Source of the DNA: Acidimicrobiia bacterium
GTDB lineage: Bacteria; Actinomycetota; Acidimicrobiia; Spongiisociales; ZC4RG35
Direction of reading: 5' to 3'
DNA length: 64,000 bases
Assembly (NCBI GenBank): GCA_965203555.1
Contig: CBDBCY010000004.1
Location: 2,016,001-2,080,000 of the forward strand
Within the stretch, counting starts at the first letter, position 1; every line of letters begins with the position of its first letter. A model generated the notes under the pieces. It did not search any database. It was given only the letters and a program-made list of their open reading frames with translations, and was not told where the DNA came from. Below, piece after piece: positions 2,583 to 61,781 of this stretch. A program made the translations under genes and the position numbers.

Positions 2583-2585
2583 GCG

Positions 2586-3971
2586 ATGACCCTCTGGGAA
2601 GGGAGGCTGGGAGGCGTCCCTGCCTCGCAGCTGTGGGACTTCACCGTCTCAACCGCCGACCGTCGCCTGCTCCGAGACGACATTGATGGATCCATAGCCC
2701 ACGTGGAGATGCTCGGGGAAGCGGGGATCCTGTCGGGGGACGAGACGACGGCCATCGTTGACGGCTTGCGAGCCATAGCCGAGGAAGCCCGGACCGGTGT
2801 CTTCGTTTTCCTGGAAACCGATGAGGACGTGCATTCGGCGGTGGAGCGTCGTCTTGTCGAGTTGGTGGGACCGGTGGGGGGAAAACTCCATACCGGCCGG
2901 TCCCGCAACGACCAGGTGGCGCTTGATCTCATCCTTTACATGCGACGAGGGGTGGCCGGACATGCCAAAGGCTTGGCCCGACTGGCGTTGGTCCTGGTGG
3001 AGGCGGCCTCCCGGTTGGGTCCCGAGATGGTGGTTCCCTCCTATACCCATCTGCAGCAGGCCCAGCCCACCTTGCTCGCCCATCACCTTCTGGCCTACGC
3101 CCACATGCTGGTCCGGGAGCGGCAGCGCTTCCTGGATCTGAGCACCAGGTTGGATTCCTCCCCACTGGGGGCGGGCGCCTCGGCGGGATCGTCTCTTCCT
3201 CTTTCTCCGGACAAGTCCGCCGAACTGCTGGGAATGTCCCAAGCCTTTGCCAACTCATTGGATGCGGTCGGGTCGCGAGATCGGGCCACCGAGTATGTGT
3301 GGTGTTGCGCCCGGACCCTGGTTACCCTCTCCCGCCTGGGAGAAGACCTGGTCCTGTGGTCCACCCGGGAGTTCGGATGGGTCACCCTGGCCGACGAATT
3401 CGCAACGGGGTCATCCGCCCTTCCGCAGAAGAAGAACCCGGACATCGCCGAGCTGGCCCGGGGCAAAGCGGCCGGGGCTATCGGGGGCCTCACGGCCATG
3501 ATGGCCTTGGAGAAAGGTCTGCCGATGTCATACAACAGGGATCTGCAAGAGGACAAGGAGCACCTCTTCCGGGTGGACGACGACCTGGCCGGCGCCTCCT
3601 CCGCCTTGGCGGGGCTATTGGCGACTGCCCGCTTCCATCCGCCGCCACCGGCATCGGAAACGGCCGCCCTGGACCTGGCGGAGGCACTGGTCGGCAGGGG
3701 AGTGCCCTTCCGGGAGGCGCATCGGGTGACCGGTGGAATCGCCGCCCGCCTGGCAGCCGAAGGCCGGGGTTTCTCATCCCTCAGCGCCAGCGATCTAACT
3801 AACGCCCATCCCAGCTTCAAACCTTCCGACCTGGATCTGCTGGACCCGGTTGTCTCGGTCAAACACCGCGCAACGCCCGGCGGAGGCAGTCCCGAAAGCG
3901 TGGCAGTCCAGATCGACCACCTGCGCACCGAACTATCCGGTTGGTTGACCAAAGACGGAGGTTGGCAATGA
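2586..3971 (+). CDS. argH: Argininosuccinate lyase
   Basis: Motifs HTGRSRNDQV, YTHLQQAQP, TGSSALPQKKNPD, YNRDLQEDKE. Confidence 0.96.
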   Translation: MTLWEGRLGGVPASQLWDFTVSTADRRLLRDDIDGSIAHVEMLGEAGILSGDETTAIVDGLRAIAEEARTGVFVFLETDEDVHSAVERRLVELVGPVGGKLHTGRSRNDQVALDLILYMRRGVAGHAKGLARLALVLVEAASRLGPEMVVPSYTHLQQAQPTLLAHHLLAYAHMLVRERQRFLDLSTRLDSSPLGAGASAGSSLPLSPDKSAELLGMSQAFANSLDAVGSRDRATEYVWCCARTLVTLSRLGEDLVLWSTREFGWVTLADEFATGSSALPQKKNPDIAELARGKAAGAIGGLTAMMALEKGLPMSYNRDLQEDKEHLFRVDDDLAGASSALAGLLATARFHPPPPASETAALDLAEALVGRGVPFREAHRVTGGIAARLAAEGRGFSSLSASDLTNAHPSFKPSDLDLLDPVVSVKHRATPGGGSPESVAVQIDHLRTELSGWLTKDGGWQ

Positions 3972-4275
3972 GGTTTTGTGAGGTTCCCTGGCGCTCGCAG
4001 AAAGCCAGAAGGATGCGGACCCACCACCCCGAGGTGGTCCTCGTAGCCCCGGTTCGGTTTCGACATCTCCTGCGGCTAATACAAAATCGAACCGCCCCCA
4101 TCGACGGCGGGCTATGAAACCGTGGCGGATTAGGGCTTGAACTGTGTCAAGGCCCTCCGCATGTGGGCCAGAGCCCTGGGCTGGGGTATTTGCGCGCCAG
4201 GGCCAGAGGCTCCAGTCGATGGGAGAGAATACGGGCTTGGCGCCCTCCTCTGCGAAGGGATCGGCTGACCTGTCC

Positions 4276-4302
4276 TATAATGAGGGCCGTGTTCGCAGGA
4301 GG
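4276..4302 (+). promoter_or_regulatory. -10 box (TATAAT) and Shine-Dalgarno (AGGAGG) of the TA operon
   Basis: Consensus TATAAT at 4276-4281 and AGGAGG at 4297-4302, upstream of the ATG at 4311. Confidence 0.55.
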
Positions 4303-4310
4303 TTGCCGCG

Positions 4311-4646
4311 ATGATGAACATCAAACCCCACGAAAACGTTCCCCTTTCCGTTGATCACGAGTCTGAAACGATCCGGGTCGAGGGAGGGCGCCTCAAGTTG
4401 GACAATGTCATCATCTGCTATGAGATGGGCTACTCCACCCCCGAGGCTCTTCACGCACAGTACGACTTCATATCAGTAGGCACCATGCGGCGAATACTGG
4501 ACTGGTACCACACCCGCAAGGACGAAGTGGATGCTTACGTCGCTCACAACGAAGCCATATGGGAAGAAGCCAGGCGCTACTGGGAACCTATCTTCGCTGA
4601 GCGGCAGGAACGTACCCGGAGTCAGCGCGAGTCAGCCGCGTCGTAA
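4311..4646 (+). CDS. DUF433-family antitoxin (VapB45-like)
   Basis: IRVEGGRLKLDNVIICYEMGYSTPEALHAQY resembles DUF433 (iRv.GtRi.v..i....G.spEei...y); lies upstream of a PIN-like gene. Confidence 0.75.
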   Translation: MMNIKPHENVPLSVDHESETIRVEGGRLKLDNVIICYEMGYSTPEALHAQYDFISVGTMRRILDWYHTRKDEVDAYVAHNEAIWEEARRYWEPIFAERQERTRSQRESAAS

Positions 4647-4667
4647 CCGCTCATAAGGGCAATATGA

Positions 4668-5066
4668 TTGTGCTATGTGCTGCTTGTTCTGATGGACGCT
4701 GACACGGGAATGGCTCTGTTTGAAGCGATACAAGCGGCGTCGGAAAGGGCAGGCGTCGATTTCGACATGATGCGCGCCGTTGATCTTCTGCCGCCGAGAA
4801 CCCCCGACAACGAAGTCTTGGAACTCGCTGCGAACGAAGGGCGCGTGACCGTGACTCACGACGTGAACACCATGCCCGCCGTCGCGGACTATCGCGTCGC
4901 CAACCGGCTTGCCATGGCGGGACTTATCTTGTCCCACCAGCAAACCCCGCCCTACTACGCGGCCCAGTGGATAGTGCATCAGCACGTTCAGAGAGAAGAA
5001 TGGGATCTCGGTTGGGAGGGGGCCATAGAGTGGGTACCCACGCTTAGGATACACTCTCGATTATGA
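4668..5066 (+). CDS. DUF5615 PIN-like toxin (VapC45-like); start may be GTG 4677
   Basis: N-terminal hydrophobic strand LVLMDAD and PDNEVLELAANEGRVTVTHD match the DUF5615 pattern (D..vl..A...gRvllThD). Confidence 0.75.
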   Translation: MCYVLLVLMDADTGMALFEAIQAASERAGVDFDMMRAVDLLPPRTPDNEVLELAANEGRVTVTHDVNTMPAVADYRVANRLAMAGLILSHQQTPPYYAAQWIVHQHVQREEWDLGWEGAIEWVPTLRIHSRL

Positions 5067-5354
5067 GGGCTCTAGGCGATGAGGGAGCGGGCCGGACCGG
5101 TTTGTTGGTGCTTGGTTGTGCCAGGTGATCGGGGTGAGGGCGAGGATTCAATGCAATACCCGGGCGTTGCCGCCGGTAGGAGTGCGTCCGCGTGGCGTTC
5201 GAGAGTGAGTTGGTCTCCGATGGTGTCATGCATCGATGCGATGGTTTGATGGACAAGGTTTGTGCTGACAAACACCCGAGCGGAGGCCGTTGGAACCTAA
5301 ACTGAGGGCCACTTCCTACTCAAGCCCGTACAGATCCCGGACAAAGCACATTAG

Positions 5355-6878
5355 GTGAACCGACCCAGCCTCGCCCCGCCCACCCGTCCGCCGTTTTGGC
5401 GCAATGCCACCTTTCTGAAGTGGGCGGCCCAGATCGGAGTGCTCTTCGGGGTGGTCGCCTTGGGCTATGTGTTGATCGGAGAAGCCGCGGCCAACATGAG
5501 AGCGCAGGGGCTGTCACTCGACTGGGATCTGCTGACTGATCCCCCCGGCATCCAACTGGGAGAGGGCATCTTCATCAAACCCGACACCGGACTGGAGGCG
5601 TTCTACACCGGAGCGGTCAACATGCTGCGGGTCGCCATGTCGGGAATCGTTGCAGCCACGGTGGTGGGCGCCGTTGTGGGCATCGCCCGACTCTCTTCGA
5701 ATTGGCTGGCTTCCAAGTTGGCCACAGCGTTCGTCGAGACCGTTCGCAACATTCCGGTCCTGGTGCAGGTGGTGTTCTGGTTCTTTCTCGCCTCCATCCT
5801 GTTTCCTGTTCTGGCAGAGGACAGTTCCGGCCCCATCCCGGGAATCTTGTTGGTCAGCCGCAAGGGGGTTTCTTTCGCCTGGCCCTTCCCGCAGGAGACG
5901 TTCTGGCAGTGGGGCGCCTTCCTGGTGATAGGCCTTCTGACCGCCCGGTGGATCTACCGTACGCGGATGCGCCGCGCCGAAGAGCTGGGGGAAGACACAC
6001 GTCCTCTGACATGGGCATTGTTGACCTTCTTGGCTTGGGCTTTGGTGGGCTGGTTCGCTCACCCGTTGGCAGGGGCGGTGGGGTGGCTGTTCGGTCTGCT
6101 GGCTGCCCAGGTCGGCGCTGTACCTGTTCTGGCCTACCAGGGACTCTTGGCTCTCCTCGCCCTCTATTTGGCCTGGCGCTGGATTCACCGGTTCTTGGAG
6201 TCCCGTCGAAGCCCGGCCGGGCTGGCCAAACTAACCGACGACGACTATTTCCGAATGCTCCTGGCTGGGGTGCTGGGCATAGGCGGCGCAGCGGTCCTGC
6301 TTCTATGGCCCGGCATCACGGATCTAGGCGCTGGCGTCCTTCAGTCGATCTTGGAGTTCTTTGACCAGAAGTTCGATTTCCTGCGGACTGGCGCACCGTT
6401 GGCCATCGGGCAGCCTTCTGTTGAAGTACCGGGCCGTTTTCCCCAGATCGGGGACACCGGTATGACCATGACCCCTTCCTTCTTCGGGATCTGGATGGGG
6501 GTGACGCTGTACACGGCCTCCTTTATAGCCGAGATCGTGCGAGGCGGAATACTGTCGGTTCCGAAGGGTCAGAGCGAGGCCGGATATGCGTTGGGTCTAC
6601 GCCGAGGACAGCTTCTGCGAATGGTGATCCTTCCCCAGGCCTTCCGGGTGATCCTTCCTCCATTGGGCAACCAGTACCTGAATCTGTCCAAGAACACCTC
6701 CCTCGGCATAGCGGTGGCCTTTCCCGAGATGGTACAGGTCGGCCAGACCATGTTCAACCAGACCGGCGACACCATCCAGGTGATCCTGATCTGGATGGCG
6801 TTCTATTTAAGCATCAGCCTGCTCCTGTCGGTGCTGGTCAACTACTACAACAGACGTTCCCAATTGGTTGAGCGATGA
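5355..6878 (+). CDS. Polar/general L-amino-acid ABC permease, AapQ/BztB-like, enlarged
   Basis: Motifs VETVRNIPVLVQ, EAA loop AEIVRGGILSVPKGQSEAGYALGL, and LNLSKNTSL. Confidence 0.85.
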   Translation: MNRPSLAPPTRPPFWRNATFLKWAAQIGVLFGVVALGYVLIGEAAANMRAQGLSLDWDLLTDPPGIQLGEGIFIKPDTGLEAFYTGAVNMLRVAMSGIVAATVVGAVVGIARLSSNWLASKLATAFVETVRNIPVLVQVVFWFFLASILFPVLAEDSSGPIPGILLVSRKGVSFAWPFPQETFWQWGAFLVIGLLTARWIYRTRMRRAEELGEDTRPLTWALLTFLAWALVGWFAHPLAGAVGWLFGLLAAQVGAVPVLAYQGLLALLALYLAWRWIHRFLESRRSPAGLAKLTDDDYFRMLLAGVLGIGGAAVLLLWPGITDLGAGVLQSILEFFDQKFDFLRTGAPLAIGQPSVEVPGRFPQIGDTGMTMTPSFFGIWMGVTLYTASFIAEIVRGGILSVPKGQSEAGYALGLRRGQLLRMVILPQAFRVILPPLGNQYLNLSKNTSLGIAVAFPEMVQVGQTMFNQTGDTIQVILIWMAFYLSISLLLSVLVNYYNRRSQLVER

Positions 6879-51252: not shown

Positions 51253-52142
51253 CTGCCTCTGGAACGGCGCTTCGTCCGGTTCCCACCGGGAACCTGGCTC
51301 AACGTTTGCAGCGGCGGCGCAAGGCCCTGTGGTACCTGAGCATGGTGTTCATAGGTTTGGTCATGATCCTTCCCGTCTACTACATGATCTACCTGGCCTT
51401 CTCCGAACTCGGGAAGGAGTTCGTCTTCCCGCCCGGGTTCTTGCCGGACCCGATCAAATTCGAGAACGTGCTCAAGGCGCCGGAGGGTACGGCAACCCCT
51501 CTCTGGGGATACGCAAAGAACAGCCTCCTGTACGCGGGGCTGGGCACCCTGGGAGCGTTGGTTGCGGAGTCGATGGCAGGCTTTGCCCTGGCCCGGATGC
51601 GCTTTCCGGGCCGTAACGTCATTTTCGCCCTCACGGTGGGCATGCTGATCATGCCTTTCGTCGCCACCATCATCCCCAAGTTCCTGCTGTTCAGCAGAGT
51701 CGGGTTGGTGGACACCTACTGGGCACTGATCCTGCCCTGGTGGTTCGGAGGGTCGCCGTACGGGATATTCCTGATGCGCCAGTTCTTCCTGACCATTCCA
51801 CGGGAATTCGATGAAGCCGCACTGATCGACGGCGCCGGGCCGTGGAGAACCATGTGGCTGGTGCTCATGCCCCAGGCGGTTCCGGTGCTGGTGGCCCTGG
51901 GCATGCTGCACTTCGCCTACTTCTGGAATGACCTGCTGGGGCCACTGGTGTTCTGCCAGACACGGGCCTGCAAGACCCTGCCCCAGGGCATCCTGGCCAA
52001 CTACCAGGCGACCTGGGATCCGCAGTGGGCGATGTTCATGATGTCCACGGTGCTGATGGTGCTGCCGGTGGCGGTGGTGTTCATCCTGGCTCAACGGCGG
52101 TTCAAGCAGGGATTCTTGTTCTCGGGACTGGGGGGACGGTGA
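51249..52142 (+). CDS. CUT1 ABC permease (MalG/UgpE-like)
   Basis: Motifs FLMRQFFLTIPREFDEAALIDGA and WNDLLGPL. Confidence 0.92.
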   Translation: MTASGTALRPVPTGNLAQRLQRRRKALWYLSMVFIGLVMILPVYYMIYLAFSELGKEFVFPPGFLPDPIKFENVLKAPEGTATPLWGYAKNSLLYAGLGTLGALVAESMAGFALARMRFPGRNVIFALTVGMLIMPFVATIIPKFLLFSRVGLVDTYWALILPWWFGGSPYGIFLMRQFFLTIPREFDEAALIDGAGPWRTMWLVLMPQAVPVLVALGMLHFAYFWNDLLGPLVFCQTRACKTLPQGILANYQATWDPQWAMFMMSTVLMVLPVAVVFILAQRRFKQGFLFSGLGGR

Positions 52143-52867
52143 TGCCGCTGCACCTCGGCGCCGTGCTCATTGCCCGGGCTTGGCCGCAACGGCACGCGCT
52201 CGAGGAGTTCGATCGGTGGCAGCAGACCAAGCATCTGGTCGACCTTGTGGCATTGCCGGGTGTCCGCCGGGTCAGCTACTACGCCACCCGGACGGCCGGC
52301 GTCCCCCAGGCCTGGCAGGGGAGCGGCAACCGGATGGCGGCTTACTGGGGCGAGGATCTGGAGGGGCTCAACCGTTGGATGTCCGATCCGGGCCTGGCGG
52401 AGGCCATCGAAGACGGCAGCCAATTCTTCGATTCGTTCAACGAGTTGGACGACAGCACCTACACGGGGAACGTCTACCAACTCGGACCCAGATGGCCGGG
52501 AGATCCGGAGCCATCGTTGCAGGGGTGTCTTCTAATGCAACGATTCGAAGTGACCGATCACGAGAAAGAAGAATTCGACGATTGGATCATCCGCAAGCAC
52601 CTGCCGGCCCTGCGCAGCATCCCGGGATGGCGGTGGGTCCAATGGGGCAAGGCGGTGAGGGGTCTTCCCGTGCAGTACTACAACTCCCCGGGCAATCGGG
52701 TGGTGCTGGCGGAATTGGATCACCCGACGGCGCCTGATCTGACTTCCGGACCTGTAGACCGCGTCTTGGCCGATTCGCTCAGGTGGGATCGCCGCCTCAA
52801 CTACATCCGCCGAGAGGTTGACGAGCGGGTCGCTTCTTTCGACAAACCTGTGGGGGCATCCGCATGA
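52142..52867 (+). CDS. Uncharacterised EthD/DUF4286-like double-barrel protein (paralogue B)
   Basis: EEFDRWQQTKHL and EEFDDWIIRKHL repeats, each followed by GNR; C-terminal DSLRWD..L.YI.RE shared with paralogue A. Translationally coupled on both sides. Confidence 0.7.
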   Translation: MPLHLGAVLIARAWPQRHALEEFDRWQQTKHLVDLVALPGVRRVSYYATRTAGVPQAWQGSGNRMAAYWGEDLEGLNRWMSDPGLAEAIEDGSQFFDSFNELDDSTYTGNVYQLGPRWPGDPEPSLQGCLLMQRFEVTDHEKEEFDDWIIRKHLPALRSIPGWRWVQWGKAVRGLPVQYYNSPGNRVVLAELDHPTAPDLTSGPVDRVLADSLRWDRRLNYIRREVDERVASFDKPVGASA

Positions 52868-54081
52868 GTTTTGTAACCATGGAGAACGTTTGGAAGGTGT
52901 ACCTCGACGGTACGGTGGCGGTCGAGAGCCTCGATCTCAGCGTCGAAGAGGGCGAATTGATGGTGCTGGTAGGACCGTCGGGTTGTGGAAAGTCATCCAT
53001 TCTGAGGATGATCGCCGGCCTTGAGGAGATATCGGCGGGTTCGCTCTACATCGGAGGGGAACTGGTGAACGAGGTCTCTCCCGACAAGCGCAACATCGCC
53101 ATGGTCTTCCAGAACTACGCGCTCTATCCCCATATGACGGTGGCCGAGAACATGGGGTTCAGCCTGAGGCTCCAGCACGTGGCCAGGGCCATCCGGGACC
53201 GGGTGGTGGGTGAGACCGCCAACGTGCTGAGCTTGAGCGAATTGTTGAAACGGCAGCCGGCGCAACTGAGCGGAGGCCAACGGCAAAGAGTGGCGATGGG
53301 ACGCGCCATGGTGCGGGATCCGCGGGTCTTCCTCCTGGATGAGCCCCTCTCGAATCTCGACGCCAAGCTGCGCACGCAGATGCGAACGGAGGTGCGGGAA
53401 CTGCAGCGCCGTCTCGGTGCGACCATGATCTATGTAACCCACGACCAGGTCGAAGCCATGACCATGGCCGACCGGATCGCGGTGCTGCGGCGGGGTGTGC
53501 TGCAACAGGTGGGGACACCCCGAGAGCTCTACTGGGAGCCCGCCAACCTTTTCGTGGCGGACTTCATCGGCTCACCCGCCATGAATCTGCTCCAGGGCAC
53601 GCTGGAAGTTGACGGCGACCGAGTCAGCATTCTGTACGGCGAGGGATTGACATTCGAACTGCCCTCGCGGCTGCGGACCGGTCGGACGCGGTCCGATGCT
53701 CAGGGGAAGGAAGTAATCCTCGGTGTGCGGCCGGAGCACTTCGCCGTGGCCCACAACGGATCGGAACGGGGGATTCCCGTGAAGGTGCGGTTTTCCGAGG
53801 TACTGGGGTCGGAGACCCTGGTGCATGTCGATGTGCCCGCGCCAACCGTGGTGACCGAAGGGCTTCGCGAGATAGCCCAGGACATCGACGACACGGTGTT
53901 GAGTCAATTGGAGATGTCCAAGGAAAGCCGATTCGTCGTCAAGCTGAACGGAGACCGCCCGGTGGAATCGGGAGCGCAACTGCAGATCGTTCCCGACGAG
54001 GACTGCCGTCTTTACTTCTTCGATCCACAGTCGCCTGCAACGCCCGCCTGGTCGTTGAAACCCAAGGAGGATGATTTATGA
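52864..54081 (+). CDS. CUT1 ABC ATPase (MalK/MsmX family)
   Basis: Motifs GPSGCGKSS, FQNYALYPHM, LSGGQRQR, DEPLSNLDAKLR. Confidence 0.93.
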   Translation: MSFVTMENVWKVYLDGTVAVESLDLSVEEGELMVLVGPSGCGKSSILRMIAGLEEISAGSLYIGGELVNEVSPDKRNIAMVFQNYALYPHMTVAENMGFSLRLQHVARAIRDRVVGETANVLSLSELLKRQPAQLSGGQRQRVAMGRAMVRDPRVFLLDEPLSNLDAKLRTQMRTEVRELQRRLGATMIYVTHDQVEAMTMADRIAVLRRGVLQQVGTPRELYWEPANLFVADFIGSPAMNLLQGTLEVDGDRVSILYGEGLTFELPSRLRTGRTRSDAQGKEVILGVRPEHFAVAHNGSERGIPVKVRFSEVLGSETLVHVDVPAPTVVTEGLREIAQDIDDTVLSQLEMSKESRFVVKLNGDRPVESGAQLQIVPDEDCRLYFFDPQSPATPAWSLKPKEDDL

Positions 54082-55097
54082 GTGACTCGAAGCTCTCGAA
54101 GCTTGCTCTCGGCTGCTACCCGCTCGGCGGTGGGTATGGGAATCTGGAGTTGGAGACGGCACGAGCCACCGTGGATGCCGCCTTGGATGCCGGCTGGACG
54201 TTCTTCGACACGGCCGAGGGATATCTCGACTCCGAGGTGAGGCTGGGACAGTTCTTGGCAGGACGCCGTGATCAGGTGTTCCTGGCCACCAAGGTGTTTC
54301 CCAACGAGCCCTATACCTACGAAAACATGAGGGTCTCCTTGAACAACAGCTTGAGGAAACTGCGCACGGACCGGGTTGATCTTCTCCAGTTGCACGGTCC
54401 CCCGGACTGGGTGATCACCTTCGACGACGCGCCTTCAATGGCCGAGGTGGGAGAGTCCCTGGCTCGATTGGTAGAAAGCGGTGATGTCCTCAAAGTGGGG
54501 GTCTGCAACCTCCCCGTTTCTCTGATGGAGGAACTCTCCACCACTGTCCAACTCTTCTCCACCCAGAACCTGTGGTCGCTCTACGATCAGGTCGGCACGG
54601 ACGACGGGATCCACCTGCCGGTGGGTGAGTCCATCATTCCCTGGTGCCGCGACAACAGTGTGCATGTCTTTGCCTTCAGTCCGCTGGCTCGAGGTCTGTT
54701 GGCCGACGGATTGTCGCCCGACCGCACCTTTCCGACCCACGACGAGCGGTATTACCTGCCCCGCTTCCAGCCCGACGTCTACCCCGACTGGGCGCGCCTT
54801 TCCAATCGGCTGGAGGGATGGGCGCGGGACAACGGTCGCACCCTGGTGCAGTTGGCGGTGGCTTGGACCCTGGCCACTCCCGGAGTCACTTCCACCCTGA
54901 TCGGCGCGAAGACGCCGCGCCACATCGAGGCCATGGCCGGCGCCGATGAATGGGAGATGTCGGAGAGCGACCTGGCGGAAATCGACGACATCATCGCCAC
55001 GCTCCCACCCAGAGCGGCCGCAGCCCTATCCATCGTCTGGGACCACTTTCCCGAAAATGCGGTCCGGGCCATGGCCGATCGTCGACACGGGCGGTAG
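54078..55097 (+). CDS. Aldo/keto reductase
   Basis: Motifs FDTAEGY, LATKV, DLLQLH, FSPLARGLL. Confidence 0.9.
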   Translation: MSDSKLSKLALGCYPLGGGYGNLELETARATVDAALDAGWTFFDTAEGYLDSEVRLGQFLAGRRDQVFLATKVFPNEPYTYENMRVSLNNSLRKLRTDRVDLLQLHGPPDWVITFDDAPSMAEVGESLARLVESGDVLKVGVCNLPVSLMEELSTTVQLFSTQNLWSLYDQVGTDDGIHLPVGESIIPWCRDNSVHVFAFSPLARGLLADGLSPDRTFPTHDERYYLPRFQPDVYPDWARLSNRLEGWARDNGRTLVQLAVAWTLATPGVTSTLIGAKTPRHIEAMAGADEWEMSESDLAEIDDIIATLPPRAAAALSIVWDHFPENAVRAMADRRHGR

Positions 55098-55322
55098 CTG
55101 GAAACGCCACCCGTCACAGCCATGATCCGATAATTGTGTGTCAAGCGGATTGTCTATGTGACTCGGTATGGGGGATGTCTACCTTTGAGGGTGGCTCTCG
55201 CGTCAGCGAGGCCTTCTCCGTTACCCACCCTTTTCAGACTCGCGGCTGGACTCAAGCGTAACGTGTCATGCGGTGCGAGAGTGATAGTACTTCTGCGCAT
55301 TGCCTACTTGACCTGGCGTTTC

Positions 55323-55348
55323 AATCTACTCTAACATTGTTAGAGTAG
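55323..55348. repeat. AT-rich palindrome at the 3' end of the AlbA gene (left site)
   Basis: Perfect 11-1-11 palindrome CTACTCTAACA-T-TGTTAGAGTAG (55326-48). Confidence 0.85.
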
Positions 55349-55349
55349 G

Positions 55350-56852
55350 TTATAGCCCGGGTGTTTGAGGTTCGTGTTCCGTTAGTACCCAATATGCCTG
55401 TGGGTCCTGCCGTGAGCTTCCCACCCACTTGACCAACCCAGCGGTCTGCAAGGTTTTGATGTGACGTAGAACGGTGGGTCGGGAATGGAAGGTGGCGGCC
55501 ATGATCTCGCCCGTGGAGAGCCGGGTTGCTACCCGTAATAGCTGCAGCACTTGTCGAGCGGTCTGCGGCAGTGCTTCCTCCACACCCTTGACGGTGGTGC
55601 GGGCGAGCAAAGTAACGTGAACCGAGGATGATCTCTGTTCAAAAACGGGATCAACCAGGCCCTCCCTCCGCATCCGGTCGAACATGCGGCGTATTCCTTC
55701 TCCCAACTCTTGGCCGAACCGCATGTCTGCACATACGCGGGCTATATTGGGGTTCCGGGCGTACCGCATCACTTCACGAGGATCGGCGCTGTTGGCGAGA
55801 CCAGGAAAGCGCCCCGGGCTGTGCACTTCGATTCGGTTGTCGAATATCTCGAATCGAATGTGGTCTCCGGACATGCTGTATGAGCGGTGCACGACCGCAT
55901 TCACAAGCGCTTCGCTCCACACCTCGGTGGGGATGATCGGCACAGTCTCGAATCGGCCCCGGTGTCCGAAGGCTTCCCGGGAAGGCATGAGGCTCTTTAT
56001 GGAACGACGGGCCTCTTCGATCTGACCGAGCAGAGACCCGTCAACCTGCCGATCAGTCTCCAGTTGCTGTCCGCGGCCGACCCCACGGGCATTGCCCCGG
56101 TATCTCAAGATACGCACCCGAGCCTGGGGGAACCAGGCTTGGGGCGTGATTCCGAATAGCAACACTGCGGCGACTGTGATCTGTCCGGCCCGGTCCACGA
56201 GTCCTCTTGCGGTAAGAAGTCGCTCTCCATTCCCGGATCCCAATGCCGAAGCCCAGGATGTCATGGCGCCGGGGTCCAGGTCGGCCTGGGAGGCGTCAGG
56301 TATCGGCGTTGCTTCGTAAATGCTCTGTCCCTTGTCATGCAGCAATTCCCGCCGCTGATCGAACCGGAGCTTTCGGGTTTCGTCGCCCACTCGAAGAAAT
56401 ACCTCGTCGGCGACCGTGGCATGAACCACGTTCGACTTCCTGATCCGGAATACCAACAGATGATCTCTCTGCCCGGATTGGTTGACACATGCCAGCAGTT
56501 CGGTGGAAATGGGGACCACAGGTACGGTGAAGTCGATTGCGGCCTGCTGCCAGGATGAAAGCAGCCTCGGACCGGAGTGGTAAATTCCGACGACGCAGCT
56601 CCTTTCGACTCCTTCAGAGCGGTCTTTGCTAAGACCAACCACCACGATTCCCCCGTCAGCATTGGCGAACGCCACCAGAGTGTTGGCCAGATCTCTCGCG
56701 GCGACACGCGGGCCTTTGCGCTCGAACCATTGGCTTTCGGGAACCTGGCAAAGCAACGTGCCGCATCGAGATTCGTCGGCGATTAGTGCTTGTTCAGCGG
56801 CGGCGGTGGTCACTAGGTCGGTGATCTCTCTCAAGAAAGCCAGTCTGGACAA
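55350..56852 (-). CDS. AlbA_2 (Schlafen-like) + HATPase_c_4 + C-terminal HTH protein; start may be GTG 56813
   Basis: ESQWFERK, AFANADGG.VVVG, EALVNAVVHRSY, IEVHSPG, RNPNIA, ELGEGIRRM, C-terminal wHTH. Confidence 0.85.
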   Translation of the reverse strand: MSRLAFLREITDLVTTAAAEQALIADESRCGTLLCQVPESQWFERKGPRVAARDLANTLVAFANADGGIVVVGLSKDRSEGVERSCVVGIYHSGPRLLSSWQQAAIDFTVPVVPISTELLACVNQSGQRDHLLVFRIRKSNVVHATVADEVFLRVGDETRKLRFDQRRELLHDKGQSIYEATPIPDASQADLDPGAMTSWASALGSGNGERLLTARGLVDRAGQITVAAVLLFGITPQAWFPQARVRILRYRGNARGVGRGQQLETDRQVDGSLLGQIEEARRSIKSLMPSREAFGHRGRFETVPIIPTEVWSEALVNAVVHRSYSMSGDHIRFEIFDNRIEVHSPGRFPGLANSADPREVMRYARNPNIARVCADMRFGQELGEGIRRMFDRMRREGLVDPVFEQRSSSVHVTLLARTTVKGVEEALPQTARQVLQLLRVATRLSTGEIMAATFHSRPTVLRHIKTLQTAGLVKWVGSSRQDPQAYWVLTEHEPQTPGL

Positions 56853-56854
56853 CT

Positions 56855-56880
56855 ATACTATAAACTTTTTATAGTAGATT
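56855..56880. repeat. AT-rich palindrome at the 5' end of the AlbA gene (right site)
   Basis: 9-3-9 palindrome TACTATAAA-CTT-TTTATAGTA (56856-76), related in sequence to the 55323 site. Confidence 0.8.
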
Positions 56881-57069
56881 ACACCAACCCCGTCCTTATG
56901 TGATGGTGCCTCCCAAGCCTCTATTACCTCGACGGATGGCGCCCCACATGTTCGTAACAAGCGACATCGAAGGCTCTCCCAAGGCGCCATCAGCCCTGCG
57001 AGACGGTGAAACGGTTGCTCATCACTGAACCAACTCAGGTCGATTCAGCCAGTGGGGCCAGACCGCGCT

Positions 57070-59313
57070 TTACGGTTGGTTGGCGGCCCCAGGGGTGGGG
57101 TTGTCAACGGTTTGAAAGTCGCCGGTGGCGTCGGGCAGGCGGGCGTAGCTGTGATCCGCGGGAGATTGGCCTTCGCTCCAGTCGACACTGGAGACGAGGG
57201 CGCCGTCCAGCAGCCAGATTCCCAGTTCCTCGTCTCCGCCCAAGGCGAAGCCGGGCCAGCCGTCCTTGTCCAACCTGAACTGCACGTACCCGCCCGGTTG
57301 GATGCTGGCGCCGACCGGGAAGGAGACCCGCTTGGCGGCGTCGGTGAGGCTGTCGGCCACCACAAAGCCGTCGAGCGACACCGGATGGGACAGCGGGTTG
57401 TGCAACTCGAACCAGTCCAGGGGGTCACCCTTGGCAGCCACCTCGTTGATGACCAGGCCGACCTGCGGAGGAGGGTCGGGGTCCGGTGCCTGCGGGACGT
57501 CGCCACCGGTCGACGGCGGACGCCCGAAAACGCCGGAGAAGGCGCCGGCCACCGTGGAGCCGGGCGTCGTCCCCGCCTTCGACAGTTCCAGTGTGCCCTC
57601 GGTGAAGGGCGAGAAGGCGTCCGGCGCCGCGGCTCCAGCCGGGATGGACCACGTCCCCCCGGCGATGGCGTCCTCGCCAATGAGCAGCCTGGCGCCCTCG
57701 GCCAAGCGATCGAGGTCCATGGTCAGCGTCATTCCGGTGAGGGAACCGTCGTCGTTGAACCTGATGACGGTGACGGACCCGGGCCTATCGACGTCCGGTA
57801 GCAGGCTGCTCTCCTCCGGGCTGGAGTGGCCGGCCAGAACTGCCATGCCCTCCCCCGAATCCTCGGAGCCGTTCAGCAGCAGGTTGCTGATCGTCCCCTC
57901 CCCCCAAGGCTCGGAACTCAGGTTGCTTCCCCAAGTCGTCTCGAAGACGATTTCCAGGGTGCCCGACCCGGCGTCCGGCGGGGCGGATGTCTCCGACTCG
58001 GGCCACTCGGGCGGACTGGGTATGAGGTCCGCCAGTATCTCGCCTCTCCGCTTCAGGATGAACTTGCGCACCCGCTCCGTGTCGGCGGAGGCCTCCTCTC
58101 TGGCCTCCGGTAGAGCGTGCCGCTGCACGATGGCGGCCATTTGGTCCACAACGGCCAGCAGTTCCTCCTCGTTCCAGGCGATGCCCAGGATCTCCTCCAG
58201 GCGGGCGGTGTATTTGCCCCGCCAATCGGGATGGTTGTAAAGGCGGTTGGGGATGGCCGTGAGGGCCAGCACCGACGGGGGCGGGTCGCTGATGTTGTCG
58301 AAGGGATTGGGGTCGTCCTTCAGGTGGAAGGTGTCGTCGACGCCCCACGGTATGAACACGAACGGCCCGTCTGGCTCACGGTAGAAGTGATAGTTGTTGC
58401 GGTTGCCGGCGTACCCGTCCCAGTGTCCCACCAGCACCTCCGTCGCCCAAAAGGAGAGGAACCGGTCCAGGTCCGCGATCTCGCCCAGCGCCTCCAGGCC
58501 GGCGTCGGACGGGTCCTGCAGGGCTGCCACCACCGCGTCTATGTCCGACCAGTCGGCAACGTCTTCGTTGGTCTTCTTCTCGATGGTGCCGCGAAACTCC
58601 GGCGTGAAGTCGCTTACCGTGCCTTCGTACAGGTTGCCCTCGGCGCTATCGAAGTGCCGGGACAGAAACGGCGCCTTGATTTCTTCGACATGGACGTACA
58701 GTCCCAGATCCTTCCCGTTCACCGACACGGTGGCGAAGTTGCAGCGCGGCGCGGGAATACCGGCGGCGGCGAACACCCGGTACGACAGGCAGGTGTTGAC
58801 CATGGAGGGGTCCTGGATGCTGTTGTTCAGGGTCATCCGCTTCATGATCCCGCCGAGGGACCGGCCGTCCACGTACTTGTCGAACCGCAGCTTCAGGGAC
58901 GGCTTGGTGTCGCTCTGGGAGCCGACGAACCCCTTCTTGCGAATCCCGATGTCGGTGTGGGTCTCGCCGTCCACGGTGACGGTGCCGGAAAACCAGGTGT
59001 AGATATCGGCAAAGGGCCGGGAGAGGCCGAATTCCTCGATCTCCGCCATCACGTCCTCCAGCGTCCGGGTCTGGTGGCGCAGGGTGTCCCAGTCCTCGCC
59101 GGCGATTTCGATGCTGATGTCCAGCACGCGGTCCAGGGCGAAGTAGGCATCGCCGGGGAAGGTGGTGGTGGCGCCAGAGGTGGTGGTGTCGGAGGTGTCC
59201 GCCACCGTTGAGGTGGTACCGGCAGGGGATACGTCGGCGTCGTCGGTCTCGTCCCCGCAGGCAACCGCAATCATCACGGCCGCCGCCAGCACCATGGTTA
59301 GTCGCCGGTACAC
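57070..59313 (-). CDS. CotH kinase-family lipoprotein with C-terminal lamin-tail domain
   Basis: IAVAC lipobox, IRKKG, KPSLKLRFDK, GLYVHVE, HWDGY...NNY, FIPWGVD. LTD motifs VINEV...DWFELHN...SYAR.PD...TPGAAN. Start uncertain. Confidence 0.85.
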   Translation of the reverse strand: MYRRLTMVLAAAVMIAVACGDETDDADVSPAGTTSTVADTSDTTTSGATTTFPGDAYFALDRVLDISIEIAGEDWDTLRHQTRTLEDVMAEIEEFGLSRPFADIYTWFSGTVTVDGETHTDIGIRKKGFVGSQSDTKPSLKLRFDKYVDGRSLGGIMKRMTLNNSIQDPSMVNTCLSYRVFAAAGIPAPRCNFATVSVNGKDLGLYVHVEEIKAPFLSRHFDSAEGNLYEGTVSDFTPEFRGTIEKKTNEDVADWSDIDAVVAALQDPSDAGLEALGEIADLDRFLSFWATEVLVGHWDGYAGNRNNYHFYREPDGPFVFIPWGVDDTFHLKDDPNPFDNISDPPPSVLALTAIPNRLYNHPDWRGKYTARLEEILGIAWNEEELLAVVDQMAAIVQRHALPEAREEASADTERVRKFILKRRGEILADLIPSPPEWPESETSAPPDAGSGTLEIVFETTWGSNLSSEPWGEGTISNLLLNGSEDSGEGMAVLAGHSSPEESSLLPDVDRPGSVTVIRFNDDGSLTGMTLTMDLDRLAEGARLLIGEDAIAGGTWSIPAGAAAPDAFSPFTEGTLELSKAGTTPGSTVAGAFSGVFGRPPSTGGDVPQAPDPDPPPQVGLVINEVAAKGDPLDWFELHNPLSHPVSLDGFVVADSLTDAAKRVSFPVGASIQPGGYVQFRLDKDGWPGFALGGDEELGIWLLDGALVSSVDWSEGQSPADHSYARLPDATGDFQTVDNPTPGAANQP

Positions 59314-59445
59314 AATCCTCAGGGTATCGGACCACGGTCCCAACCAGGTTATCCGGCCCGAAGCCGGACTCCGACCCGGGTTCGGCTCACCGCACGGCGC
59401 CCGGGGGAGCAGCTACCGGGGGACCCAGCTTTCAGAATAAGGGTC

Positions 59446-60306
59446 TTACCCCGAGTCGGCCAGGGCCTGGCGGATCTGGTCGCGGACGTAGATCGTCTCG
59501 CACAGGTTGTCGACCCTGTCGCAGCCCCACTTCTGCATCCACACGTACTCGGCGGCTATGAAGCCCTCATAGCCCTGATCGACCAGCCGACGAACCAGAC
59601 GTTGGATGTCGATCGTTCCCTCATAGGAGATGGCCTGCATCACTTCCGGCGCCGCCTGGCGGACCTGGTGGTGCCTCGAGATCGGCAAGAGGGTCTCGAT
59701 GCGCTCCTGGGAGATGCCCTGGTAGACGAAGTGGGCAAAGTCGAGGCAGACCTTCAGGCCTGGGACCTCTGCGACGAGTTGAGCCGTTACCTCGGGAGTC
59801 TCGGTGATGGAGCCGATGTGCGGCTCGAAACCCAGTTCCAGCCCTGCGTCCTGTGCCACCTCCACCCGCCAGGCCAGCTCCTCCACCGCCAAGTCCCAGT
59901 CGCGGGCTGGATCGCGATCCTGGAATGGACAGCCCGGCAGGATGGTCAATCCCGGAGACTCCAGCACCAGGGTGAACTCGATGAAGCGGCGGAAGTCCTC
60001 TCGGGCCTTGTCGCGAACCTCGGCGGACGGATTGTTCGGCGCCGCCGACTGCACGTCGAACACTGGCCTGAAGTCGGTGATCACGATGGGAAAGACGTCC
60101 GCCACCGCCAACCCGTGATCGTCGGCCATCGCCTTTATCCGTCGGCCGACGCCGGTGGGATCGGCGATGACGTCCTCGGCGGAATTGTTGGGATTTCCCG
60201 AGAAGACGGCAACGTCCACCGCGTCGAACTCCAGTCCCTTGATCAGGGCAAGGTTCACGTTGTACGGCAGGAGCGGGAAGGAATAGTCGGCGCAGGAAAG
60301 CCGCAT
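59446..60306 (-). CDS. Sugar phosphate isomerase/epimerase (xylose isomerase-like TIM barrel)
   Basis: Metal-ligand pattern FEPH, LDFAH, HQVR, GYEGFIAAEY. SD AAAGGA. Confidence 0.82.
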   Translation of the reverse strand: MRLSCADYSFPLLPYNVNLALIKGLEFDAVDVAVFSGNPNNSAEDVIADPTGVGRRIKAMADDHGLAVADVFPIVITDFRPVFDVQSAAPNNPSAEVRDKAREDFRRFIEFTLVLESPGLTILPGCPFQDRDPARDWDLAVEELAWRVEVAQDAGLELGFEPHIGSITETPEVTAQLVAEVPGLKVCLDFAHFVYQGISQERIETLLPISRHHQVRQAAPEVMQAISYEGTIDIQRLVRRLVDQGYEGFIAAEYVWMQKWGCDRVDNLCETIYVRDQIRQALADSG

Positions 60307-60362
60307 GGCAGTCGTTCCTTTCGTCATCGGGATGTAGCGTGCTATTAAAGTTAGGCCGACCG

Positions 60363-61781
60363 ATGAGTCGCCCCTCCCCAGACCGCCCACCTCGTATCGG
60401 CCAGTTGTCGGTTTACTTCGGACTCTTCGACGCGGCGATGCCCCCCGAGTTCCGCCGCGACCGGGAAGCACTGGCAAACCGCTTCACCGAGTTCCTTTCC
60501 GCCGGCGGGGACGTTGTCTTTCCCGGTCTGGTGGACTCCGAGGAAGCGGGACGCCGGGCGAATGACGTGTTTGCCGCCGAGCAGGTGGACGTGGTGGTGT
60601 TCGTTCCGGCCATGGCTGCCCCGCCCAGCTACGGCTGGGAGGCCATCTCCGGTCTGGGCATCCCGGTCATCTCGGTGGCGGCCCAGGAGCTCACCTCGAT
60701 ACCCGATGTGTACACCACCGAGGAGGGGACGCAGCGGAGCACCCTGGTGGGCCTGGTGATGTTCACCAACGTCATGGCCCGGGAGGGAAAGCCCATGGTG
60801 ACATTGGTGGGGCGGTTGGAGTCGGAGGAATTCGCCGCGGAGGTGGCGCAGACCGTACGGGCGGCCGCCCTGGCGAAACGCCTGCAAGGTGCGCGGGTGG
60901 GCGCCATCGGGGCTCCGATCGGGGGGTATCTGGACGTGGAGGCCACCCCCGAGGAAGTCGACGGCTTGGGATTGGAGATGGTCTCGATATCGAGGGAGGA
61001 ACTGAACGCGGCTTTTGCCGGAGCATCCCAGGAGAGCGTTGGGGAACTCGTTGACGGTCTGCGGGACAGATTCGATACCGACCGGACTCCCGACGAGACC
61101 CTTCAGCGGTCCGCCCGGCTGGCCGTAGCCCTTCGGGACATCTGCGAACGAAACGACCTGGTGGGGGGGACGGTGAACTGCCACGGCGACATGTTCCGCT
61201 GGAACCCGGAGGTGGGGATCACGGCCTGTCTGGGGGTGACCTGTCTGACCGAGGCGGGAACGCCCCTTTCCTGCACCGGCGACCTTCCCGCCGGTATCGC
61301 CCTGGTGATCGGGAAGGCCGTGGCGGGAGGGTCCCTGTACTGCGAGGTCTACGGGGTCGACTTCGAAGGAGACTGGGTGCTGCTGGCCAACGGCGGCGAG
61401 AGCGATGTCTCGATGGCCGATACATCCCGGCCGATCACCCTCCTGCCCGAGGACCACTACATGGGTGAGCAGGGTCCGGGCACCGCCATCGTGTTCTCCC
61501 TGCCCACCGGGCCCGCCACCCTGCTGAGCATGTCTCCCATCGCGGGGGCCGAGGGAGGTTGGGCGTTGGTGGTGGGCGAGGGGGAGATCATCGGTTCGCG
61601 GCACGAGTCGATCGAGGGCCCCAACGGGATGTTCCGCTTCTCCTCGGGTCCTGCGTCCGAGGCCTTCCAGCGGTTCTGCAACGCCGGCGCCACTCATCAC
61701 AGCGCCCTGACCCCCGGCCACCACCTCCGGACGCTTCGGATGATGGCGGAGTGGATAGGCTTCGAGGTCCGGGCGGTCTGA
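60363..61781 (+). CDS. L-fucose/L-arabinose isomerase family protein
   Basis: GTVNCH, ACLG, SCTGD, GATHHSAL.PGH; overall layout of FucI/AraA-like proteins. Confidence 0.72.
   Translation: MSRPSPDRPPRIGQLSVYFGLFDAAMPPEFRRDREALANRFTEFLSAGGDVVFPGLVDSEEAGRRANDVFAAEQVDVVVFVPAMAAPPSYGWEAISGLGIPVISVAAQELTSIPDVYTTEEGTQRSTLVGLVMFTNVMAREGKPMVTLVGRLESEEFAAEVAQTVRAAALAKRLQGARVGAIGAPIGGYLDVEATPEEVDGLGLEMVSISREELNAAFAGASQESVGELVDGLRDRFDTDRTPDETLQRSARLAVALRDICERNDLVGGTVNCHGDMFRWNPEVGITACLGVTCLTEAGTPLSCTGDLPAGIALVIGKAVAGGSLYCEVYGVDFEGDWVLLANGGESDVSMADTSRPITLLPEDHYMGEQGPGTAIVFSLPTGPATLLSMSPIAGAEGGWALVVGEGEIIGSRHESIEGPNGMFRFSSGPASEAFQRFCNAGATHHSALTPGHHLRTLRMMAEWIGFEVRAV

Follow-up and report, generated by a model that had tools for sequence, protein, structure and literature searches.

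Why is a single accessory gene enclosed by two related palindromes? The question is raised by a 64,000-nucleotide stretch of an Acidimicrobiia bacterium genome (GenBank assembly GCA_965203555.1, contig CBDBCY010000004.1, positions 2,016,001 to 2,080,000 of the forward strand; hereafter the window), in which a palindrome lies at each end of a gene for a Schlafen-family protein. The original prediction had proposed either a recombinase-mobilized or invertible cassette, or twin operators for the gene's own helix-turn-helix (HTH) domain. The palindromes are read here, with moderate confidence, as a promoter-proximal and a distal operator for the winged helix of the protein itself, in a unit that is gained and lost whole. 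The genome of the window (G000) is a 3.42 Mb assembly, 95% complete. The gene and the two palindromes, D (downstream) and U (upstream), are as follows.

55350..56852, minus strand: gene for a protein with a Schlafen (AlbA_2) RNase domain, a GHKL ATPase domain (HATPase_c_4) and a C-terminal winged HTH (open reading frame (ORF) and Pfam)
55324-55350, no strand: D palindrome, full form ATCTACTCTAA-CATTG-TTAGAGTAGGT, TACT..AGTA core at 55327-55347
55327..55347, no strand: D site, 21-bp dyad TACTCTAAC-N3-GTTAGAGTA, extended arms 55323-55351; proposed distal operator
56853-56879, no strand: U palindrome, full form CTATACTATAA-ACTTT-TTATAGTAGAT, core at 56856-56876
56856..56876, no strand: U site, 21-bp dyad TACTATAAA-N3-TTTATAGTA, extended arms 56853-56880; proposed promoter-proximal operator

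Position, symmetry and specificity of the palindromes

Both dyads are AT-rich and have an 11-5-11 geometry, with symmetric arms around a 5-nt spacer. Exactly one gene is enclosed between them. The D core starts 3 nt past the stop codon TAA (55350-55352), with two bases between, and the U site lies 22 nt upstream of the TTG at 56834, roughly 20-45 nt upstream of the likely start. In a repeat search of the window, D was recovered as a hairpin with 14-nt arms (93% complementary), and D and U as a 25-nt inverted pair with 76% match (19/25). Inspection of the sequence showed that arm position 5 is C/G in one site and A/T in the other, the change being compensated within both sites. The palindrome coordinates, the inverted match and the compensatory arm changes of the original prediction were all reproduced, and so were the AT-rich gene ends that it had seen in a GC-rich window: GC content drops to 0.515-0.53 at both ends of the gene vs. 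0.59-0.64 within it.

The pattern TACTMTAANNNNNTTAKAGTA, allowing up to two mismatches, matched twice in the window and in none of 100 shuffles. At the same threshold, D and U were its sole matches in the 3,417,261-base genome, and the reversed control gave none. The genome-wide motif scan proposed earlier therefore returned only the pair around the Schlafen gene in 3.4 Mb. A chance origin of the palindromes was ruled out by the shuffles together with the two sole genome matches. A dispersed or REP-like repeat was ruled out as well, there being just two copies and none in gene-less genomes of the genus.

The enclosed gene and its product

The longest ORF encodes 500 aa from a TTG at 56852, which abuts the U palindrome. 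The palindrome had been described as touching this longest-ORF start, which is confirmed; alignment with orthologue N-termini favours GTG 56813 (487 aa) or TTG 56834 (494 aa) instead. The GTG start gives MTTAAAEQAL..., resembling MTTTAVERAL... of the orthologue in a genus relative (G008). These alignments suggest that the true start is GTG 56813 or TTG 56834 rather than TTG 56852.

Pfam assigned SLFN_AlbA_2 (PF04326, E 5.4e-10) to residues 39-162, HATPase_c_4 (PF13749, E 1.1e-19) to residues 329-415 and HTH_24 (E 1.4e-6) and HTH_5 (E 1.1e-5) to the C-terminus. PADLOC matched the N-terminal SLFN-GHKL part of a pAgo model (positions 57-439, E 6.8e-25), and NCBIfam gave weak similarity of the HTH to the SdpR autorepressor and ArsR families and nothing else. 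The segment ESQWFERK carries an intact Ex4ExK motif, with E33, Q35, W36, R39 and K40 invariant in 37 aligned orthologues, among which the GHKL residues N312 and D324 are nearly invariant. The AlphaFold model (mean pLDDT 86.2) has a three-helix, two-strand winged HTH at residues 424-484. Foldseek matched the full-length model to DIP2311 (3LMM, E 1.7e-24), the N-domain to human SLFN14, SLFN11, SLFN12, SLFN13 and SLFN5 (E 2e-5 to 1e-3) and the C-terminus to ArsR/MarR-type regulators such as SrnR (rmsd 2.2 A over 63 columns). 3LMM was also the sole relative in the PDB at the sequence level (phmmer E 5.4e-10). With all four domain and motif features present, the protein is by its sequence a member of the HisKinase-HTH class of prokaryotic Schlafens ('Schlatpase' + HTH).

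The dyad follows the gene across phyla and phages

Orthologues were collected at 75 loci (37-77% identity) from Actinomycetota, Chloroflexota, Saccharibacteria and one Gemmatimonadota metagenome-assembled genome (MAG); 31 of these loci are from Saccharibacteria and are mutually non-independent. TACT-N12-14-AGTA was present within 250 nt upstream at 56 of the 75 (56 matches in 21.0 kb), namely at 29/31 Saccharibacteria and 27/44 other loci, and within 250 nt downstream at 10 of the 75. Just three matches were found in 258 kb of coding and far-flank DNA. As a family, the dyad has the signature (C)TACT-N12-14-AGTA(G). Second sites were then scanned for with each locus's own dyad, allowing up to five mismatches. 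This gave 43 sites in 17.9 kb of downstream and 31 in 22.8 kb of upstream DNA vs. a background of one in 83 kb of coding sequence and two in 124 kb of far flank; a downstream second site was present at 24 of the 31 Saccharibacteria loci. In 200 sampled genomes of the Saccharibacteria order, searched for solo arrays, the motif occurred only in the starting genome, where four half-site pairs were found, all at the gene. In one Anaerolineaceae MAG (L068), five related dyads lie ~100 nt apart, 91-514 nt upstream, and two more past the stop, as a tandem array of modules.

The sites co-vary within loci. Recognition helices SIPSVRR or SNPPVRR pair with the half-site TACTCGAAA and ARPTA(S/G)RH with TACTGAAAC; elsewhere the helix is mostly SRPT/V.

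The gene has orthologues in the lysogeny/defence region of temperate actinophages: 25 phage records matched the protein (~44% identity), and 15 of these matches covered at least 80% of the query. In the two copies examined, gene 38 of Gordonia phage Nymphadora and gene 31 of Mycobacterium phage Squirty, the dyad stands 12 nt and 6 nt before the annotated start, respectively. Both copies are near a tyrosine integrase, and Squirty has a weak variant of the dyad downstream. Gene 31 of Squirty (L122, 3501-6263) is itself annotated 'DNA helicase, RecG-like' and adjoins genes 29 and 30, gene 29 being annotated as RelA/SpoT-like. In related phages, this region is known to contain prophage-encoded defence genes. 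Plasmid matches to the protein reached at most 31.5% identity.

Conservation of U and D in the genus

Sixteen relatives of the same genus were present among the 60 genomes searched, giving 17 genus genomes with G000. Full-length orthologues were found in four relatives, G003 (77% identity), G007 (75%), G009 (74%) and G008 (68%), and gene fragments in three (G006, G011 and G015). A partial match in G039, an unpublished genome, was left out of the claims made here. A U-type dyad lies upstream of all four full-length orthologues. The U dyad of G000 is TACTATAAAAAGTTTATAGTA; those of G007 and G009 are one or two changes away, and those of G003 and G008 are TACTGTT... variants, the G003 dyad ending in AGCA, outside the strict pattern. 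In both G003 and G007, the stop is followed at +3 by a D-type dyad TACTCTAA-N5-TTAGAGTA, i.e. a related site follows the stop in two of the four full-length orthologues, and the D site of G008 is degenerate. The D dyads of G000, G003 and G007 have perfect 8-10-bp arms in surrounding non-coding DNA that has diverged, and the D sites of G000 and G003 differ at a single spacer position. Beyond D, a further half-site-like element and a spacer are common to G000, G003, G007 and the G006 remnant.

55281..55290, no strand: extra half-site-like element GTACTATCAC (as read on the gene strand), ~36 nt beyond D; the same element is GTTACTGTAAC in G003 and TTACTGTAAC in G007
55098..55326, no strand: spacer from the stop of the neighbouring aldo/keto reductase (AKR) gene to the D site; part of the accessory unit and not of the empty-site intergenic DNA

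Each of U and D is separately conserved while the proteins differ by ~25%, which argues for selection on both. Alternatively, U alone would function today, and D would be what is left, in decay, of a downstream copy of the regulatory module in an ancestor. No long direct repeat, such as those described below for other lineages, is left at the own locus (score 22 vs. a shuffle maximum of 25), where the dyads and one extra half-site remain; D is missing from G009 and degenerate in G008, and the G011 remnant has lost the palindrome and kept its flanks. A relic would not be expected to retain perfect arms at +3 next to proteins that are 75-77% identical, or to change at one spacer position amid diverged non-coding DNA, and the compensated C/G vs. 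A/T difference keeps both U and D symmetric. Decay of D is therefore considered very unlikely.

The operator reading

In the favoured reading, a dimer of the protein's own winged helix would dock on 21-bp dyads, (C)TACT-N13-AGTA(G), that travel with the gene. U overlaps the -10/start region, so that binding there would lead to negative autoregulation of a potentially toxic nuclease. D, past the stop codon, would be another operator, conserved in its own right, that probably acts together with U, e.g. by looping through an oligomer. In G000 and G003 it probably also occludes an antisense promoter; alternatively, it might block incoming transcription. Gene and sites would make up one accessory unit, complete in itself, that is acquired and lost in one piece. 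Where other lineages have long direct arrays, recombination between these would remove the gene precisely and leave one array.

Five features together point to a protein that binds DNA sequence-specifically and is encoded within the unit, namely the winged helix. Conservation across phyla extends to the TACT/AGTA letters and is not limited to their pairing; tandem direct half-sites accompany the dyad, as is typical of protein-binding arrays and impossible for a hairpin; the sites are restricted to the gene's own flanks; they co-vary within loci; and the recognition helix differs in clades with different half-sites, a match that is confounded with clade. Autorepression is suggested by the overlap of the dyads with -10-like hexamers, and a second operator by the separate conservation of D. 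As in known operators, a dyad at the gene's own promoter is conserved with the gene (promoter overlap at the consensus level) and the sites are restricted to their own locus. It is from comparison between genomes that we infer that the winged helix binds the sites, that the gene is repressed and that U and D cooperate. The twin-operator alternative of the original prediction is accordingly the one favoured: the dyad follows the gene across phyla and phages, is absent from the rest of the genome and is accompanied by tandem half-sites. That D generally serves as promoter for a co-directional gene further downstream was rejected, since at most loci with a D site the likely downstream neighbours appear convergent or unrelated in raw ORF lists; in the window, the next gene, AKR, is convergent.

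Promoter-like sequences and RNA folding

Two promoter-like sequences overlap the palindromes.

55308..55337, plus strand: TTGACC-N18-TAACAT, overlapping D and directed antisense into the 3' end of the gene (consensus scan)
56846..56875, plus strand: TGGACA-N18-TATAGT, overlapping U and directed away from the gene (consensus scan)

The first had already been reported in the original prediction and was recovered by the consensus scan. The same hexamers with the same spacing lie antisense in the G003 orthologue; they are missing in G007 and in the G006 remnant. The second, outward sequence arises because the U dyad holds a -10-like hexamer on both strands. On the gene strand, the -10-like TATAGT lies within the right half of the U site as part of a loose TTGGTG-N19-TATAGT, and in G003 a TATAAT adjoins the upstream dyad.

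The palindromes might also act as RNA hairpins, D as a terminator or 3' stabilizer and U as a 5'-UTR (untranslated region) stem-loop. D immediately follows the stop codon, and its 61-nt fold reaches -18.1 kcal/mol (z -2.7); U is crossed by one RNA-library contig. The D hairpin is without a U tract, however, and the terminator scan gave no match; the U fold is weak (-8.5 kcal/mol, z -1.8). Hairpins would not account for outer TACT/AGTA letters conserved across phyla, for tandem direct half-sites alongside the dyad or for one type of element on both sides of the gene. This explanation is very improbable, slightly more so than a relic at D.

Occupied, empty and remnant loci

The genes around the unit in the window are the following.

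54078-55097, plus strand: AKR, convergent neighbour of the Schlafen gene
57070-59343, minus strand: CotH/lamin-tail protein
59446-60477, minus strand: xylose-isomerase-like TIM-barrel protein (TIM)

The gene is present in five of the 17 genus genomes, in three contexts. The order is AKR-[gene-CotH]-TIM in G000 and AKR-[gene]-TIM, without CotH, in G007; in G009 the TIM-gene side is retained and the downstream DNA is different. G003 has an empty AKR|TIM junction, and its gene is located 35 kb off, beside rplI. In G008 the AKR|TIM junction is empty as well, and CotH...gene is located on a different contig. Empty junctions, with 46-70 nt between AKR and TIM, were found in nine genomes (G013, G001, G014, G016, G010, G004, G003, G008 and G005). 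No TACT..AGTA site or half-site was present in any of these nine AKR|TIM junctions. With a looser pattern over the 17 genus genomes, matches were obtained just in the five that carry the gene and always by the gene, with one match of the reversed control; the 12 gene-less genomes contained no solo site.

The inserted DNA runs ~190-226 nt past the D palindrome. In the window, the spacer 55098..55326 is 81% shared with the G011 remnant locus up to 55290 and is missing from empty junctions of 46-57 nt. Palindromes as the exact borders of the insertion were thus ruled out, since the unit extends outside them. The remnants of G006 (in which ~115 final codons of the gene and a degenerate form of the D module are left), G011 (two short pieces plus the spacer on the AKR side, as far as 55290 in window coordinates) and G015 are products of irregular deletions. 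In the G011 remnant (L043), the D palindrome is gone and the sequence on both sides is kept, consistent with loss of an unprotected palindrome. Judged from these junctions, the unit is an accessory insertion whose limits lie outside the palindromes and whose loss in this genus leaves no site.

The unit in G003 (L050) stands between two directly repeated copies of a 233-nt sequence (~88% identical), both outside its palindromes. These lie at -336..-104 and +118..+350 of the gene (L029, 9155-9387 and 11054-11286), beside rpsF and rplI, and the downstream copy begins ~11 nt before the stop-codon end of a minus-strand ORF (11065-11745 of L029). The repeat is probably host DNA duplicated at insertion, and the unit looks like a homology-based (Campbell-type) or duplicative insertion.

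These loci bear on recombination at the palindromes. According to this explanation, the sites or arrays are crossover sites at which a host Xer-like recombinase, an unfamiliar one or the Schlafen protein itself inserts and excises a circular cassette of ~1.5 kb. The 11-5-11 arms, the three contexts of the gene in the genus and the existence of empty AKR|TIM sites would fit. The siteless state of all nine empty junctions and all 12 gene-less genomes does not, nor do the ~190-226 nt inserted beyond D or the irregular deletions in the three remnants. There is also no further copy of the motif to serve as a chromosomal partner, the 1.5-kb unit is without a recombinase, and the G003 host duplication outside the palindromes points to insertion by homology. 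An Xer/dif-like mechanism, which had been suggested for this locus, is not supported, given the spacer (5 nt, not 6 nt), the symmetric arms, the missing partner site and the siteless empty junctions. The search for empty alleles retaining a palindrome thus went against that proposal, and the cassette idea was upheld in part: a self-contained accessory unit exists, present in five of 17 genomes and three contexts, and the palindromes are not its borders.

Evidence from sequencing runs consisted of assembled contigs, which hide rare forms. The runs containing the stretch are labelled as sponge and coral metagenomes. A sponge contig (X4, covering 53500-57148) and a coral contig (X5, covering 53500-58076) are colinear with the window, with ~1% differences. 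Among contigs of three DNA-type runs from three studies, one of which is possibly the source of the window, no joints, including strand-changing ones, were found between 55000 and 57000; all listed joints lie within CotH, 57151-58391. The inversion or circle junctions whose presence in reads had been anticipated were therefore not seen at the contig level, which counts against recombination at the palindromes, although rare forms could be hidden.

The same contigs bear on a switch in which the sites would be inverted repeats that flip the gene relative to outside promoters. D and U do match at 19/25 positions as an inverted pair, and promoter-like hexamers overlap both. Each site is symmetric, however, and so defines no orientation. 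The orientation of the gene relative to AKR and TIM is identical in G000, G007 and G009, the contigs are colinear and no recombinase was found among the six proteins scanned around the gene (52025-60477). The invertible unit proposed earlier is dropped on these grounds, its probability being close to negligible.

Direct repeats and solo arrays in other lineages

In several lineages, the downstream site lies within a direct repeat of the upstream module (R-gene-R). The repeats measure ~180 nt in Arcanobacterium (L055, ~97% identical), 81-104 nt in Corynebacterium (L057, L058 and L059), 118 nt in another lineage of Acidimicrobiia (L062) and 92-93 nt in Saccharibacteria (L084 and L092). The module opens with two to three tandem 11-bp direct half-sites, which are followed by a spacer and the dyad. 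The upstream and downstream copies share lineage-specific spacer letters that differ between species, a pattern by which the two arrays are under concerted evolution. Transposon terminal inverted repeats were ruled out, since the flanking arrays are direct in these lineages.

A Corynebacterium-type dyad was found in 24 of 151 species genomes, with one to three per genome, and the reversed control gave none in all 151. Nine genomes have a pair of sites 1,472-1,527 bp apart (one of these with a third site), one has two sites on different contigs and fourteen have a single site. The Schlafen gene lies between the sites in all five pair loci that were fetched. Thirteen of the 14 single-site loci hold a complete array with no gene within 2.5 kb, one of these thirteen being cut by a contig end; the solo-array genomes that were checked (G076, G117, G156 and G209) contain only paralogues of at most 28% identity. 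The solo loci L128, L130 and L124 align with the occupied loci L139, L057 and L058 over both flanks, and the 95-nt array matches both copies. Solo and occupied alleles differ by exactly one gene plus one array, 1,500 bp. The same precise relation holds between solo L129 and occupied L141 and L142. At the first of these solo/occupied loci, G114 and G184 are naive, lacking both the array and the gene, and so apparently are the more distant G134 and G170. Arrays are present at about eight or more different loci in Corynebacterium.

One locus with three arrays in a row (L137 of G206, 2490-5880) has the order array, 1.88 kb with ORFs of no Pfam family, array, Schlafen gene, array. At this locus the same arrays may enclose other, unrelated content as well.

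The occupied, solo and naive alleles are what the cassette prediction had led one to expect, and they speak for crossover at the arrays, along with R-gene-R repeats in five lineages, 13/14 gene-less solo arrays, the exact subtraction of one gene and one array at two loci, the many array-bearing loci and the row of three. Because the arrays are 95-nt direct repeats, RecA-type recombination explains the solo state equally well, as would homologous recombination between any of the 80-180-nt direct repeats, and the unit carries no recombinase. With the genus data against it too, site-directed recombination is regarded as unlikely.

A bolder form of the idea is that the Schlafen gene is a single-gene mobile defence cassette with long terminal repeat (LTR)-like direct repeats. 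Its own winged-helix/GHKL protein would bind and synapse the arrays, much as iterons are handcuffed by Rep proteins, silencing the gene while promoting or gating its excision and re-insertion as a circle of ~1.5 kb. R-gene-R, solo-R and naive alleles at many loci, together with the phage copies, would then be explained. The likeness to the LTRs and solo LTRs of retroelements, an analogy only, lies in direct repeats around one gene and in precise solo repeats after gene loss. Unlike LTR elements, the unit has no reverse transcriptase, its repeats are the gene's own operator arrays, and homologous recombination is the probable route. Such a cassette is distinctly unlikely, more so than crossover at the sites in general.

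Points against the operator reading

The reading of the palindromes as self-operators has to be held against the following observations. The strict motif is absent upstream of 19 of the 75 loci, and outside Saccharibacteria a downstream second site was found at only 10 of 45 loci, the own locus included (L050, L065 and L086, in which the seed site itself is downstream, are additional). D is missing in G009 and hence dispensable. Orthologues lacking the downstream palindrome were among the signs that, taken together, would have spoken against the original prediction; that palindrome is present in a subset and missing at many loci. The match between recognition helix and half-site is confounded by phylogeny, each variant being one clade. 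Near-identical long repeats exceed what selection on an operator would maintain; gene conversion or recent duplication would do as their source. The consensus scan gave no gene-strand promoter at U, only the plus-strand ones. An RNA-library contig (56721-56985) crosses U and, if it is real gene-strand RNA, places U inside a transcript; the library is unstranded and DNA carry-over is possible. Positions 55138-56541 are without RNA-library cover, which is no evidence of silence.

Comparison with known systems

Autoregulated repressors with auxiliary operators and looping are known from lac (O1/O2/O3), gal (OE/OI) and deo. By analogy, the present locus would have a promoter dyad and a second related dyad ~1.5 kb away, both proposed to be bound by the locus product. 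It differs in that the regulated gene is the regulator itself, joined to a nuclease and an ATPase, and in that the distal site lies past the gene's own stop; looping would be by analogy here.

In iteron plasmids, rep is flanked by iteron arrays and an inverted-repeat operator (RepE with incB/incC in F, RepA with incC/incA in P1). The Corynebacterium, Saccharibacteria and Arcanobacterium loci are similar in having 11-bp direct half-sites and a dyad on both sides of a winged-helix gene. They differ in being chromosomal and in lacking both a replication function and a Rep fold.

Xer-dependent dif modules (IMEX, and the pdif modules of Acinetobacter plasmids) use 28-bp sites with two different 11-bp arms and a 6-bp centre. 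A one-gene module bracketed by sites of roughly 27-28 bp with 11-bp arms resembles them; the 5-nt spacer, the lack of distinct XerC/XerD arms and of a dif-like partner in the genome, and the siteless empty alleles of the genus set it apart. Integron attC sites have RYYYAAC...GTTRRRY arms separated by tens of bases. The 3-nt separation does not fit this form and attC was rejected, no search for IntI having been made.

With 19.2% of 5,930 proteins, HisKinase-HTH belongs to the two most frequent prokaryotic Schlafen architectures, and the catalytic motif of Schlafen RNases is Ex4(E/D)xK, according to the accessible part of PMC13056530 (Nat Microbiol 2026), which describes tests of four other architectures. 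The module has also been named the 'Schlatpase' supradomain, with a C-terminal HTH (accessible part of bioRxiv 10.64898/2026.05.29.728809). As far as these partial texts go, the present protein shares with such proteins the order SLFN/AlbA_2, GHKL (PF13749), HTH, the intact motif, a patchy accessory distribution and copies that adjoin integrase and defence genes in temperate phages. The same parts of the texts mention no flanking dyads, R-gene-R repeats or solo arrays. No description of these sites was found in the literature searched: the terms 'palindrom' and 'operator' are absent from the main texts of PMC13056530, PMC13462974 and bioRxiv 10.64898/2026.05.29.728809, the supplements lying outside the search.

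The role of the HTH in the HisKinase-HTH class is not stated in the accessible part of PMC13056530, and the dyads would offer an answer: the HTH may dock the nuclease on its own locus and control it. CTACT-N13-AGTAG together with arrays of 11-bp half-sites could serve as a marker by which such genes are found, delimited exactly and recognized as relics. In Corynebacterium, the series of R-gene-R, solo-R and naive alleles is a case of a single defence gene cleanly gained and lost without a dedicated recombinase in the unit, which bears on the turnover of defence genes.

DIP2311 of Corynebacterium diphtheriae (3LMM) is the sole full-length relative with a solved structure, a structural-genomics protein of unknown function. 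It is only 17-19% identical and comes without functional or DNA-site information; in the accessible part of PMC8780604 it is mentioned in passing as a fold match. TrlG of the Photorhabdus temperature restriction locus has AlbA_2 and HATPase_c_4 domains and is mutated in temperature-tolerant clones (bioRxiv 10.1101/2020.06.02.129163). It is a distant relative with the same two N-terminal domains, and the accessible part of that text mentions no HTH or DNA sites.

Further observations

CotH stands between the Schlafen and TIM-barrel genes in G000 only. In G008, 1.9 kb separate CotH (L032, 5174-7645) from the Schlafen gene, and a short-chain dehydrogenase ORF lies in this interval. In the metagenome contigs, the summed depth over the body of CotH is far higher and joints are numerous (57151-58391), suggesting that the community contains many related CotH copies.

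The Schlafen-GHKL protein has ten more matches in G000 (22-34% identity), dispersed along contig 4, which is a notable expansion for a small genome. A distant Schlafen-GHKL-HTH paralogue among them (L019, G000:C4:1451582-1455427) has a different AT-rich palindrome at 1074-1105, 51 nt upstream of its start, with 11 matched arm positions when one mismatch is allowed. A second paralogue has a weaker upstream palindrome and the remaining ones have none; some paralogues in G000 may thus have private operators.

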